The position numbers and the translations under genes are program-made. DNA of 64,000 bases from Escherichia coli (GTDB taxonomy: Bacteria > Pseudomonadota > Gammaproteobacteria > Enterobacterales > Enterobacteriaceae), in NCBI RefSeq assembly GCF_003018235.1, contig NZ_CP027439.1; one strand, 5' to 3'. The notes under the pieces are model-generated. The model was not told where the DNA came from, did not search any database, and worked only from the letters and a program-made list of their open reading frames with translations. Of this stretch, positions 25,673-42,540 are shown in pieces. The first letter of the stretch is position 1; each line of letters starts with the position of its first letter.

Positions 25673-25992
25673 CCTTTCAGGAGCTTGATGCTTGTATTGC
25701 TGGCTCTGGTAGGCGTTCTATCGCTTCAGCGTTAATCGCTTTTATTCTCGATGCGTTTGATGATGGACAGGACGGAGTTGATCTTGATTCTTTCCAGAGC
25801 CAGATGCGCTTCGTTCGCAACAATGTAACAACCGTAGCCAACTATCTGCAGCGACAGGGGGTTCTCCATATACTGTATTACCGTGATGGTGCCGCAGAAC
25901 GTCAGTATGAGACCGTTAATAATTATGGACGATGGGCAAAACAGCACTATCGTCCTTCTCAGGCACTTATTCAGTTGCACCGCCGTAATTAA
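25669..25992 (+). CDS. Hypothetical protein
   Basis: 107-aa ORF, overlapping start/stop with the upstream ORF. Confidence 0.5.
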   Translation: MTFQELDACIAGSGRRSIASALIAFILDAFDDGQDGVDLDSFQSQMRFVRNNVTTVANYLQRQGVLHILYYRDGAAERQYETVNNYGRWAKQHYRPSQALIQLHRRN

Positions 25993-25994
25993 AG

Positions 25995-26020
25995 CAAAGA
26001 TTTCGCATGCGAAATCTTTG
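25995..26020. promoter_or_regulatory. parS-like palindrome 4 (26-bp perfect palindrome)
   Basis: CAAAGATTTCGCATGCGAAATCTTTG. Confidence 0.6.
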
Positions 26021-26027
26021 CTTACCT

Positions 26028-26072
26028 AATGTGCCATAAAGCCCCGTCCTTCTGGACGGGGAGGATGTCAAA
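26028..26072 (+). repeat. 45-bp direct repeat with hairpin, copy 2
   Basis: AATGTGCCATAAAGCCCCGTCCTTCTGGACGGGGAGGATGTCAAA; stem shows compensatory changes relative to copy 1. Confidence 0.7.
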
Positions 26073-30643: not shown

Positions 30644-30867
30644 TACAGGGGCAGGCGGTGGAGGCCGCCTGTCAGCCCGCGCGAAAACCCCTGGCAGGCT
30701 GACGCCTGCCGGAAGGGAAGCGGGCCACGCTGACGCGTCGCCCGTTACCCTTCCTGTTTGTGATGTGCCCGGAATGTTTTTTTCTGATGTTATTTTTCTG
30801 TGGTTACCGTGCTTGTTATTGTTCTTCTTCTTTTTCCTCTTCCTCTTCTTTCCGTTCCTCTCCTGTT

Positions 30868-31395
30868 TATGGCTTTTCCGGGCGTCCCCCTGACGGGGCG
30901 GGCTGTCGTGAACGGAGCCAGCGAAGCTGTCTCCGCCCTGGCGGGCTTCCATCCCTGACGCGAAACCCTGGCTTGCAGCGACCGTTCCGGTCGCGCCGCC
31001 TCTGTCGCGCCGTGGCCTGCGCTCCTGGCATCCCGGCAAAAGGCCGCCGGGATGTAAGGGGCAACGCCGTTTCGCGCACGCGCTCTCCGTCGTTGCGGCG
31101 GGCCCCTGCTCATTGCCTGCCGGGTGCCACACACCCGTATGAGTCCCTGTCGCCGGGGGCTGAGACAGCCACAACCTGCCGCACTGACTGTCCAGGGTAA
31201 ATGAACAGCCCACAAAATTTTTTACCCAAAAACCGGTAAAAAATTTTGCGTTCTGCCCAGGACAGGTGCGTCAGGCCGTGGCAGTGATGCCCCTTGCGGC
31301 GAAGGTTCTCAAACGGGTGAAGTTCATACCACAGGGAATACAGCAGCAGGTTCCCGCGAAACGTCAAAACCGCGGCTCCCGAAACTCAACGGGTG
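30868..31395 (+). repeat. Frpo/ssi-like leading-region repeat, copy 1
   Basis: ~500-bp GC-rich element shared with 34163..34700 and 39676..40128; contains hairpin AAAATTTTTTACC-N8-GGTAAAAAATTTT. Confidence 0.75.
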
Positions 31396-31907
31396 ATGTT
31401 CTTTAAAAATCAGGATTTATTTCAGCCTCCGGCAATACGCATTTATTTGTTCTGTCAGTCATCCGGCTGACAGGTAATGAGAACGCAGGAACAGAAGGAG
31501 GAAAACACCGGAAAGCGTCAGATGCAGATATGAAAAAAGCAGGTCAGGGACCTGCTTAATCCATGCCGCAGAGACTGCACGAACAGTTTTTGCGGCTCCA
31601 GTCAATCGTCATAAGAGGCTAAATTATGACAATAAGTATTGTTTCACCTTCCGCAGCGGCTGTAAAGCCCCGCCGTCATCCCCGTTTCAGACGCGAAGAC
31701 ATCCCCGCGCCGGAAATTGACCCCGTGCTGAAAGCCTTCGGGCGACACATAGCCCGGAGTTTTCACCGGGGGCGTGGTGCACACATCCCCGCCATGAAAA
31801 ACACGGCCTTCGGGCAGGTGCTCCGCACACTCGAACTGAAACGCGCTTTTAACTGATGAGGTGAGCCGCCCCGCGAGGGGCGGCAACAGACGGAAGGAGA
31901 ACATTTT

Positions 31908-34060: not shown

Positions 34061-34108
34061 GCTACTGCTACTGCTACTGCTACTGCTACTGCTACTGCTA
34101 CTGCTACT
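34061..34108. repeat. Hexanucleotide tandem repeat (GCTACT)x8
   Basis: Eight perfect tandem copies read directly, followed by a CT-rich tract. Confidence 0.9.
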
Positions 34109-34162
34109 GTTCTTCTTTTTTCTGCTGTTCTGATTACTGCCTGTTTTGTTGTTCTCCTGCTT

Positions 34163-34700
34163 ATGCCTTTTCCGGGCGTCCCCCTGGCGGGGCGGGCTGT
34201 CGTGAACGGAGCCAGCGAAGCTGTCTCCGCCCTGGCGGGCTTCCATCCCTGACGCGAAACCCCGGGCTTGCAGCGACCGTTCCGGTCGCGCCGCCTCTGT
34301 CGCGCCGTGGCCTGCGCTCCCGGCATCCCGGCAAAAGGCCGCCGGGATGTAAGGGGCAACGCCGTTTCGCAAACCGCGCTTCACGTCGTTGCGGCGGGTC
34401 CCTGTCCGTTGTTGTGTCCGGTGCCATTCACCTGTTTAAGCCCCTGTCGCCGGGGGCTGATACAGCCACAACCGTCTCCGCCAGTCCAGGGGTGAAATGT
34501 ACATCCCGCAAAACTTTTTGCCCAAAAGCAGGCAAAAACTTTTGCGGTCTGCCCCCGGACAGTCGTTTCCGGCCGTGGCAGTGATGCCCCTTGCGGCGAA
34601 GGTTCTCAAAAAGGTGATGGTGAATACCGGAGGGAACAAAAGGCAGGTCCCCGCAAAACGTCAAAACCGCGGCTCCCGAAACTCAAAAGATGATGGGGGC
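34163..34700 (+). repeat. Frpo/ssi-like leading-region repeat, copy 2
   Basis: Near-identical blocks to copy 1 (GCGTCCCCCTG...GGCAACGCCGTTTCGC) and copy 3. Confidence 0.75.
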
Positions 34701-34728
34701 TGAAAACATCAACAGAAGGAGGCACATC

Positions 34729-39223: not shown

Positions 39224-39675
39224 CAACCTGGAGGCGGGCGCAGGCCCGCCTTTTCAGGACTGATGCTGGTCTGACTACTGAAGCGCCTTTATAAAGGGGC
39301 TGCTGGTTCGCTGGTAGCCCCTTTCTCCTTGCTGATGTTGTACGGGCATGAACAACCTGACTTCAGGAAGATCGTTTCCCTTCAGGAACGGGGATGAACG
39401 CGCGCCTGCGGCGCCCGTTCTTTTCCCCCGCCTTCTCTGGTTATGGCCTGTCAGAAATCACATCACCTTCCCTGTGATTATTCTCTTTTTCTTCCTGCTC
39501 TGATTCTGACTACTGCAGTGTTGTCCTGTCTGCTAGGCGCACCTTCGGCTCCCGGCTGCCTGGCGGCATCCGGTCGTCAGGCCCGACTCCGACAGGCAGC
39601 TGCTGGCGCACCTGCCAGTCTCCGCCGAACCCGCTGGCGCGGTTTCGGGCTGTCGCTACGGTCCGATGCGTGAAA

Positions 39676-40128
39676 ACCACAGGCTTGCAGCGACCGTTCC
39701 GGTCGCGCCGCCTCTGTCGCGCCGTAGCCTGCGCTCCCGGCATCCCGGCAAAAGGCCGCCGGGATGTAAGGGGCAACGCCGTTTCGCAAACCGCGCTTCA
39801 CGTCGTTGCGGCGGGTCCCTGCCCGTTGTTGTGTCCGGTGCCATTCACCTGTTTAAGCCCCTGTCGCCGGGGGCTGATACAGCCACAACCTGCCGCACTG
39901 ACTGTCCAGGGTAAATGAACAGCCCACAAAATTTTTTACCCAAAACCCGGTAAAAAATTTTGCGTTCTGCCCAGGACAGGTGCGTCAGGCCGTGGCAGTG
40001 ATGCCCCTTGCGGCGAAGGTTCTCAAACAGGTGATGGTTAATACCGGAGGGAACAAAAGGCAGGTCCCCGCAAAACGTCAAAACCGCGGCTCCCGAAACT
40101 CAACAGATGATGGGGGCTGAAAACCAGA
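39676..40128 (+). repeat. Frpo/ssi-like leading-region repeat, copy 3
   Basis: Shares the 3' block with copy 1 and the central block with copy 2. Confidence 0.75.
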
Positions 40129-40137
40129 GAAAGCAGG

Positions 40138-40425
40138 ATGAGTACCCGAAATATCCACGTTAACACCGCGTCGTACACGCTTCTTGTTGCCGGGAAGAAA
40201 AAAAACACCGGGGAAGAGTGGGACGTCCTGGAATTCAGCAGCCTGACTGAGCTGAAAAAATATCGCAAAAGCCACCCGGAAAAGATGGCCTTCAGCTATA
40301 GCTACGCGCTCAGCCAGGGTGTGGATACGCAGTTCCGCCATATCAACATTGCGGAAGCTGATCACTTCAAACAGTTCCTGCGTCAGATTAAGCGTGCCGG
40401 CCTCGATATCCGGGCGATCTGCTGA
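40138..40425 (+). CDS. Hypothetical leading-region protein
   Basis: 95-aa ORF immediately after Frpo-like copy 3. Confidence 0.6.
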   Translation: MSTRNIHVNTASYTLLVAGKKKNTGEEWDVLEFSSLTELKKYRKSHPEKMAFSYSYALSQGVDTQFRHINIAEADHFKQFLRQIKRAGLDIRAIC

Positions 40426-40542: not shown

Positions 40543-41364
40543 ATGCGATTAGCTTCCCGTTTTGGTCGGTATAATTCCATCCGCCGTGAACGTCCTTTAA
40601 CGGATGATGAATTAATGCAGTTCGTGCCTTCGGTATTTTCCGGTGATAAACATGAGTCCCGGAGTGAACGTTATACGTATATTCCAACAATCAATATCAT
40701 CAATAAGTTACGTGATGAAGGTTTCCAGCCATTCTTTGCCTGTCAGAGTCGGGTTCGTGATTTGGGGCGTCGGGAATACAGTAAATATATGTTACGTCTT
40801 CGTAGGGAAGGGCATATTAACGGGCAGGAAGTTCCTGAAATTATCCTGCTTAATTCACATGATGGTTCATCCAGTTATCAGATGATCCCGGGAATTTTTC
40901 GTTTTGTCTGCACAAATGGCCTGGTGTGCGGAAATAATTTTGGCGAAATCCGCGTTCCACATAAAGGTGATATTGTCGGGCAGGTTATCGAGGGAGCGTA
41001 TGAAGTGCTCGGTGTCTTTGATAAGGTCACTGATAATATGGAGGCAATGAAAGAAATTCATCTTAACAGTGACGAGCAACATTTATTTGGCAGAGCTGCC
41101 CTGATGGTCAGGTATGAAGATGAAAATAAAACGCCGGTGACGCCTGAACAGATAATTACTCCCCGTCGTCGGGAGGATAAACAGAACGATCTCTGGACAA
41201 CCTGGCAGCGGGTTCAGGAGAATATGATAAAAGGTGGATTATCGGGGCGAAGTGCCTCCGGGAAAAATACCAGGACAAGAGCCATTACAGGTATTGATGG
41301 TGATATAAGAATCAACAAAGCATTATGGATGATTGCCGAACAGTTCAGGGAGTGGAAGTCATGA
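40543..41364 (+). CDS. DUF932-like plasmid protein
   Basis: 273 aa from MRLASRFGRYNS with AAAGGAG RBS; resembles DUF932 family. Confidence 0.6.
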   Translation: MRLASRFGRYNSIRRERPLTDDELMQFVPSVFSGDKHESRSERYTYIPTINIINKLRDEGFQPFFACQSRVRDLGRREYSKYMLRLRREGHINGQEVPEIILLNSHDGSSSYQMIPGIFRFVCTNGLVCGNNFGEIRVPHKGDIVGQVIEGAYEVLGVFDKVTDNMEAMKEIHLNSDEQHLFGRAALMVRYEDENKTPVTPEQIITPRRREDKQNDLWTTWQRVQENMIKGGLSGRSASGKNTRTRAITGIDGDIRINKALWMIAEQFREWKS

Positions 41365-41415
41365 TAATATAAGTAAAGCCCCGAAAAATTTTTCGGGGCT
41401 TTACTTATATTATCA
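41362..41415. terminator. 54-bp perfect palindrome, bidirectional terminator between convergent genes
   Basis: TGATAATATAAGTAAAGCCCCGAAAAATTTTTCGGGGCTTTACTTATATTATCA. Confidence 0.7.
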
Positions 41416-41660
41416 TCCTGCGGCATTGCTATGTCGTCTGATATGCCTCAATTTCATCAACTGGCTTTTCGGTAGTATGTAAATATTGTGCCCGCGAAAA
41501 ATGGTCTGGCAGGAGGCTGCGCAGTTACCGGATATATATAAGATGGGTTCCCGCTTTGCGGGGCTTCGGCCAGTCAGTATTGTCACTCATATGATATTTT
41601 TGTGTGTGGCCTTCCATGCCGCTTTTGCGGCATAACCGATATCTGACAATGTCTGTAAGA

Positions 41661-42170
41661 TTAATTGTTCTGCACGCTGTTAATTTCCGGAAGTGATTTC
41701 TTCGTGGTCGGAACCTGGATGCCTTTACTGCTCTTTATCCCGGTATAAATCCGGTAAACCTCTGATGCGTAGGCAAGACGTCTCTGGTTCTGGCGTTCGG
41801 TCTTCCTGAATCCAGCATTGTATGCACCAACGGCCTCCCAGGAGACGCCCCATTTTTTAAAGGCTATTGCCAGATAATAAGCACCGGTATAAATGTTCAT
41901 GCAGGGATCTGTTGTCAGATGTTCCGGCTTAATTCCATAGCGGGCCAGTTCGTTAAAATGCTGGGAATCTACCTGCATCAGTCCGCTGCCATATCCCGTT
42001 ACCGGATTAATACCGATGGCATTAACCCGGTAACGGGATTCTTTCCATGATATTGCTCTCAGTAAATCAGGATCTATTTTGTAATCCCGGCCTGCAAGAT
42101 CAAAGCAATCAGTGGCATGGCAGATCTCATTTATAAACATCAGGCAGATGGCTAACATCCATTTTTTCAT
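41661..42170 (-). CDS. Lytic transglycosylase (F orf169 / gene X type)
   Basis: 169 aa from [12 protein letters not shown] (signal peptide) with Slt-domain motifs; location next to oriT as in F. Confidence 0.85.
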
Positions 42171-42199: not shown

Positions 42200-42540
42200 A
42201 TAATTTAACCCACTCCACAAAAAGGCTCAACAGGTTGGTGGTTCTCACCACCAAAAGCACCACACCCCACGCAAAAACAAGTTTTTGCTGATTTTTCTTT
42301 ATAAATAGAGAGTTATGAAAAATTAGTTTCTCTTACTCTCTTTATGATATTTAAAAAAGCGGTGGTACTGACTATTTTTATAAAAAACATTATTTTATAT
42401 TAGGGGCGCTGCTAGCGGCGCGGTGTGTTTTTTTATAGGATAACGCCAGGGGCGCTGCTAGCGGTGCGTCCCTGTTTGCATTATGAATTTTAGTGTTTCG
42501 AAATTAACTTTATTTTATGTTCAAAAAAGGTAATCTCTAA
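42200..42540 (-). other. oriT: Origin of transfer (oriT), F-type
   Basis: Minus strand carries the F nic-region sequence (GGTGTGGTGCTTTTGGTGGTGAGAACCACC...); direct repeats GGGGCGCTGCTAGCGG upstream of traM. Confidence 0.8.

Follow-up and report, generated by a model that had tools for sequence, protein, structure and literature searches.

The release point of an intrinsic terminator usually lies 7–9 nt into the tail that follows its hairpin. At tI/sib of phage lambda, read-through lengthens the terminator hairpin into an RNase III site, which triggers 3′-to-5′ decay of the upstream message. In typical terminator hairpins, the stem totals have medians of 20–28 nt (PMC12207403). Hairpins of another kind act in IncF plasmids, the main antibiotic-resistance vehicles in E. 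coli, whose leading region is actively studied as the programme that establishes the plasmid in a new host. In F, the single-strand promoter Frpo1 on the incoming single strand drives ygeA and ygeB, and the genes of this early operon matter for transfer, while ygfA is oppositely oriented and is not expressed until the DNA has become double-stranded (PMC9849209; the F gene names ygeB, for the DUF932 gene, and ygfA, for the SLT gene, are used here as in that work). The F literature names two Frpo-type repeats, either as Frpo1 and Frpo2 or as ssp1a and ssp1b. Here, we describe a long perfect palindrome that lies where the Frpo1 early operon ends and separates that operon from ygfA and oriT.

A 56-bp palindrome between ygeB and ygfA

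The window, that is, the whole 64-kb stretch of E. coli DNA that was analysed, matches IncF plasmids, and NZ_CP013026.1 is 100% identical to it over the palindrome region. The palindrome occupies positions 41361–41416 and consists of two arms of 28 + 28 nt (41361–41388 and 41389–41416) with a complementarity of 100% and a spacer of zero; whichever strand is read, it folds, as RNA or as single-stranded DNA, into a hairpin whose stem has 26 bp and whose loop has 4 nt. A sequence-only reading of the same DNA had reported a perfect palindrome of 54 bp at 41362–41415, where the sequence is indeed as quoted, but the true length is 56 bp. The palindrome tops all inverted repeats of the window, in which the next perfect ones have arms of 16 nt and 14 nt. 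For a 28-nt perfect arm pair the chance expectation is roughly 64000 × 4^-28, about 1e-12; the palindrome is beyond what chance can produce. Its RNA fold reaches −47.4 kcal/mol (z = −8.7), with equally good folds in 0 of 200 shuffles, and its single-stranded DNA fold reaches −29.5 kcal/mol (z = −10.9). A second perfect palindrome, of 32 bp, lies directly 3′ of a TAA at 25992–26023 (AAGCAAAGATTTCGCA followed by TGCGAAATCTTTGCTT), and a GC-rich hairpin comes after it near 26040–26062.

The genes on the two sides are convergent, as the earlier reading had said. On the + strand, ygeB (orf273, yubP; 40543–41364) encodes a DUF932 protein of 273 aa and is the last gene of the Frpo1 early operon. The palindrome overlaps its stop codon (TGA, 41362–41364), which sits inside the stem. 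The operon is led by ygeA (orf95; 40138–40425, + strand), and an Frpo1-type single-strand promoter repeat is found directly 5′ of ygeA (39674–40127, + strand). On the − strand, ygfA (orf169, gene X; 41661–42170), a homologue of R1 gene 19, encodes an SLT lytic transglycosylase and ends at 41661, so that its stop codon is 245 nt from the palindrome. The noncoding spacer of 245 nt in between (41417–41660) is presumed to be the 3′ untranslated region of ygfA. The genes ssb, a ParB-like gene, psiB, psiA and hok/sok lie further upstream of the palindrome; beyond ygfA come oriT and then traM, traJ and traY.

The exact F-type oriT nick sequence, GTGGGGTGTGGTGCTTT, was found on the − strand at 42270–42254, with the nick between GTGGGGTGT and GGTGCTTT (42254–42270, − strand). 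With the nick sequence on this strand, the − strand is the transferred strand. The nick is about 873 nt from the palindrome centre and the whole SLT gene intervenes, so that "next to oriT", as the position had been described, holds only loosely. The palindrome does not mark the boundary between the leading region and oriT either, as had been suggested; it lies within the leading region, where the Frpo1 operon ends.

Frpo-type repeats occur three times in the window (30814–31413, 34108–34710 and 39674–40127) and are 66–98% identical in blocks; their hairpin tips are near-identical inverted repeats at 31206–31255, 34506–34547 and 39920–39969. The coding region of ygfA contains an inverted repeat at 41993–42039, with 22-nt arms that are 91% complementary and a 3-nt spacer. 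The mRNA of R1 gene 19 is reportedly under RNase III control, and this repeat could be the site concerned. Within the otherwise variable 245-nt spacer, the most conserved block is 41478–41517 (diversity about 0.02). Two small ORFs of the spacer, one of 57 aa on the − strand that ends at the mirrored TGA and one of 49 aa on the + strand, were rejected as genes: variable sites are distributed 16/14/13 over the codon positions, replacements are many, and stops or frameshifts are present in some haplotypes. The spacer was also considered as a decayed copy of the DUF5983 gene known from Klebsiella plasmids, and tblastn and blastn gave no similarity.

Conservation and covariation of the stem

At an identity of 90% or higher, at least 4,130 PLSDB plasmids carry the palindrome region. 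Classical F carries the palindrome with the centre A6T3, and none of the records that we inspected, that of classical F included, annotates it. Metagenome contigs were scanned with flank anchors, so that the variants were not selected on the palindrome itself; the search anchor fixed six bases of the left arm and left the right arm unconstrained. The 111 metagenomic IncF copies, together with the plasmid records and the window, comprise 26 distinct palindrome variants. An uninterrupted perfect stem of 26–28 bp is found in 96 of the 111 metagenomic copies, and the rest have one mismatch or a shifted loop. When the 26-pair stem was laid over 23 distinct variants, 98.5% of the cells were paired.

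Eight stem pairs have changed on both sides, namely 41363:41414, 41367:41410, 41368:41409, 41373:41404, 41374:41403, 41377:41400, 41378:41399 and 41379:41398. This number was matched by 0 of 500 shuffles, while slid controls gave 0–1, and six of the eight pairs belong to the AT-rich outer arms. The G-U pairs that single-sided variants form are split about evenly between the two strands. The central A/T run behaves like a loop and varies in length from 9 to 11 nt (A5T5, A6T4, A4T5, A6T3, A4T6 and others). BLAST tables that listed two places per record were set aside as uninformative about palindromy, because a palindromic query matches itself on both strands and such matches show similarity only.

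The outer arms are also the least variable stretch in 660 bp, as computed over 95 haplotypes of that length. Their diversity is 0.010 and 0.019 (the latter for 41400–41414), as compared to 0.048 at the 3′ end of ygeB and 0.047–0.091 in the noncoding spacer (0.07–0.09 where it adjoins the right arm). These results bear out the earlier suggestion that the palindrome is more than a minimal terminator, as IncF plasmids conserve the stem over its full length and its pairs covary. The sequence-only reading had also proposed that conservation of the central GC stem alone would reduce the palindrome to an ordinary terminator. This is not what other plasmids show: the whole palindrome is kept. In core anatomy and in position, the site is nevertheless like an ordinary bidirectional intrinsic terminator, and distant relatives have short terminators. 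A single copy, in plasmid pEFC36a (JX486126.1, 401–579), has a degraded GC core (GCCC, three gap positions, AAAAATTTACGGGTCGTTAC) between intact outer arms, which reflects either a genuine loss of that core or a sequencing error in an older record. Two MAGs labelled Lachnospiraceae and Collinsella carry the IncF segment at 98–99% protein identity, almost certainly through binning contamination by an Enterobacteriaceae plasmid.

We compared 44 loci encoding DUF932 homologues, taking one genome per species, and found the long palindrome in the four IncF copies among them. The F-like plasmids of Enterobacter, Siccibacter and Superficieibacter carry, 5 nt past the DUF932 stop, an ordinary terminator, AAGCCGCUC-NNNN-GAGCGGCUUUUU, that faces the convergent SLT gene; this 9-bp terminator is found in five of the loci. 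In IncFIIK plasmids of Klebsiella, a short hairpin follows the DUF932 gene, and next come an additional gene, DUF5983, and an ordinary bidirectional terminator that faces the SLT gene. Overall, more distant F-like plasmids have terminators of 6–9 bp after the DUF932 gene. These ordinary short terminators in distant relatives indicate that the basic job of the site is termination, and the double-length stem is confined to the IncF lineage of E. coli and Salmonella.

In pSLT-like plasmids of Salmonella, the region is found at about 77% identity, with about 336 records in that identity band. In the copy that we aligned (NZ_CP040569.1, 27500–31500), two in-frame stops and two frameshifts have made ygeB a pseudogene. 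The ygeA-Frpo1 segment is without a counterpart and appears to be missing, while ygfA and the palindrome are intact. The flanks of this copy are 75% and 58% identical to the window and its palindrome is 89% identical; the six differences in the palindrome are made up of two compensated pairs, an indel in the loop and a single base at the outer end. The palindrome was thus kept while ygeB decayed, which indicates that the structure is maintained independently of ygeB coding. On this sequence comparison, the pattern would fit a role for ygfA, for insulation, or at the DNA level.

A probable terminator and its outer arms

The core of the palindrome is a GC hairpin, GCCCCGAAA(AAUU)UUUCGGGGC (41378–41399), with a 9-bp stem, a 4-nt loop and a folding energy of −14.8 kcal/mol. 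On both strands it is followed by the same tail, UUUACUUAUAUUAUC, which has 5 U in its first 8 positions and 10 in 15. For ygeB transcripts, the U-rich tail TTTACTTATATTATC is encoded by 41400–41414 on the + strand and doubles as the outer right arm of the stem; for ygfA transcripts, the identical tail is encoded on the − strand by 41363–41377, the A-tract of the + strand and the outer left arm, which also holds the tandem stops TGA TAA of ygeB. What serves as the U-tail in one direction is the A-tract in the other, so that the two tails pair and lengthen the stem to 26–28 bp, about twice the usual terminator stem. The site therefore combines the features that define a bidirectional intrinsic terminator (a GC-rich stem with a short loop, a U-tract on both strands and a convergent position), and a terminator is found at the equivalent position in related replicons. 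A terminator scan of the interval between ygeB and ygfA revealed no other terminator-like site. The palindrome itself was left unflagged by a simple terminator scan of the window because that scan scores the tail after the full-length stem.

We consider the palindrome to be, most probably, a bidirectional Rho-independent terminator that also serves as an insulator between two convergent units of the IncF leading region, and we infer that transcription ends there in both directions. The first unit would be the early operon ygeA-ygeB, read off the transferred strand via Frpo1, and the second would be ygfA, read off the complementary strand only once the plasmid is double-stranded. The nascent RNA of either strand would fold the core hairpin and then expose the U-rich tail, and the polymerase would be released about 7–9 nt into it. 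Transcripts of ygeB would thus be stopped before running antisense through ygfA into oriT, and transcripts of ygfA would be kept out of the leading operon.

Two distances count against the terminator reading. On the ygfA side, 245 nt past the stop codon is far for a dedicated terminator. On the ygeB side, just 13 nt separate the stop codon from the core hairpin downstream. Ribosomes are reported to repress terminators that lie within about 27 nt of a stop codon (PMC4824070), so termination in the ygeB direction may be leaky.

Terminator function alone also leaves the preservation of three outer pairs unexplained. The compensated pairs 41363:41414, 41367:41410 and 41368:41409 are at or beyond the expected end of the terminated RNA. 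Since that RNA should already have ended there, pairing at these positions can make a difference only to read-through RNA, to DNA or through a mutational process. Three additions to the terminator reading, which are not mutually exclusive, may account for the preserved pairs; they concern RNase III, the transferred strand and template switching. It is possible, though not likely, that the outer 8–10 bp of each arm, which are unpaired in the terminated RNA, are selected via a second state, either as a symmetric RNase III fail-safe in read-through RNA, set between the early operon and the late gene ygfA, or as a hairpin of the incoming strand that halts transcription or complementary-strand synthesis.

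The first of these states would be a fail-safe retroregulator on top of the terminator, similar to lambda tI/sib, which we put forward tentatively by analogy. The full 26–28 bp duplex of the read-through RNA would be a candidate RNase III substrate, terminated RNAs would be protected by their shorter stem of 17–19 bp, and antisense read-through would be cut and degraded. The predicted folds have the geometry of the sib type, as an RNA ending at 41407–41409 forms a stem of 17–19 bp and the read-through RNA one of 26 bp. The three compensated pairs belong to a section of the stem whose formation requires read-through RNA or DNA, and the leakiness expected in the ygeB direction, with the stop codon 13 nt from the core, is consistent with this proposal as well. 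However, related plasmids manage with 9-bp terminators, and the even split of G-U variants between the strands reveals no preference for one RNA strand. Our literature search found no report of RNase III acting at the palindrome or of RNase III control of gene 19.

The extra length may also be functionless. Quasipalindrome correction, in which a change in one arm is copied onto the other, is an established mutational mechanism in E. coli. By this account, the A- and U-tracts would be complementary by chance and would be kept perfect by intrastrand template switching, which would yield exactly the paired changes that we observed; single-sided intermediates are present at low frequency, and the 9-bp stems of relatives show that a long stem is dispensable for the basic job. 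The account is nevertheless unlikely in view of the diversity of the outer arms, which is 4–5 times below that of the flanking noncoding DNA and also below that of the ygeB coding sequence (0.010–0.019 versus 0.047–0.091). Such a low diversity is left unexplained, because correction alone should not lower the substitution rate. The identity of 89% in the palindrome of the pSLT lineage, against 58–75% in its flanks, points in the same direction.

We regard it as quite unlikely that the palindrome acts as a DNA hairpin in the transferred − strand, where it would stop Frpo1 transcription on the single-stranded template or pause complementary-strand synthesis before the relaxase-bound end. Trailing the 5′ end by about 0.87 kb, it would enter the recipient ahead of any other strong hairpin. 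The nick sequence on the − strand, the single-stranded DNA fold (−29.5 kcal/mol, z = −10.9), the covariation of the outermost pairs and the persistence of the palindrome in pSLT-like plasmids with a dead ygeB are consistent with such a role, and there is a precedent in the ssp2 stem-loop of F, which stalls complementary-strand synthesis (bioRxiv 10.64898/2026.01.09.698686). However, the hairpin falls far short of the functional single-strand hairpins in stability, as these were mined below −75 kcal/mol (PMC12672017), and conversion at ygeB is early rather than delayed (bioRxiv 10.64898/2026.01.09.698686). In addition, relatives have only short hairpins at the equivalent position, and pSLT-like plasmids carry the palindrome without an apparent Frpo1-ygeA segment, contrary to a role in Frpo1 transcription.

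The sequence-only reading had proposed a protein-binding site or a cruciform. Such a role, whether as the target of a dimeric DNA-binding protein or as a cruciform that a protein recognises, is highly improbable despite the perfect dyad symmetry and an AT-rich centre (AAAAATTTTT) that, in our view, would favour cruciform extrusion: a centre of 9, 10 or 11 nt alters the spacing and phase of the half-sites, half-site bases change in pairs that keep the pairing and not the sequence, neither the half-site sequence nor the spacing is fixed across IncF plasmids as in operator or partition-type sites, no matching motif occurs elsewhere in the window, and no candidate binding protein was identified. 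Promoter-like matches are at background (8 found, 6.8 expected); the sole match in the arms (− strand, right arm, 9/12) fires straight into the hairpin and was rejected. In a search of Rfam 15, no family reached its gathering score, and generic hairpins (His leader terminator, miRNA precursors) scored 25–31 bits versus cut-offs of 49–91.

Comparison with described systems

We found no description of the palindrome or of an orf273/orf169 terminator in our literature search, which did not extend to the F leading-region sequence papers of 1989–1999, where it may have been noticed earlier. If the palindrome is only a terminator, its value lies in annotation and in providing a clean natural symmetric terminator with strong covariation. 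If the extended stem does have a role of its own, whether in the transferred strand or in read-through RNA, early conjugative gene expression would gain a new control point.

The palindrome resembles the Frpo and ssi promoters and the ssp2 roadblock in that it forms a hairpin on the transferred strand, belongs to the same leading region and is conserved in IncF plasmids. It is far smaller than these, however, with −29.5 kcal/mol as compared to the mining threshold of −75 kcal/mol; its stem of 26–28 bp is too short for a −35 and a −10 box, and it is located at the end of an operon and not at its start. It thus lacks the properties of a single-strand DNA promoter or ssi of the Frpo or ssp type. 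The likeness to lambda tI/sib lies in a geometry that allows a longer duplex on read-through only. In contrast to tI/sib, the palindrome is perfectly symmetric, serves two facing genes and has no sequence similarity to the lambda site.

The closest match is with the bidirectional intrinsic terminators of E. coli and its plasmids, which share the GC-rich hairpin, the 4-nt loop, the U-tract on both strands and the location between convergent genes. The palindrome differs from ordinary terminators of this class in its perfect stem of 26–28 bp (at least 52 stem nucleotides; other symmetric hairpins in the window have 14-nt arms), in the compensatory pairing that it keeps past the expected termination point, and in the upstream stop codon that lies within the stem. 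The palindrome most likely belongs to a well-known class, that of bidirectional intrinsic terminators, and its stem is unusually long and has demonstrably been maintained.
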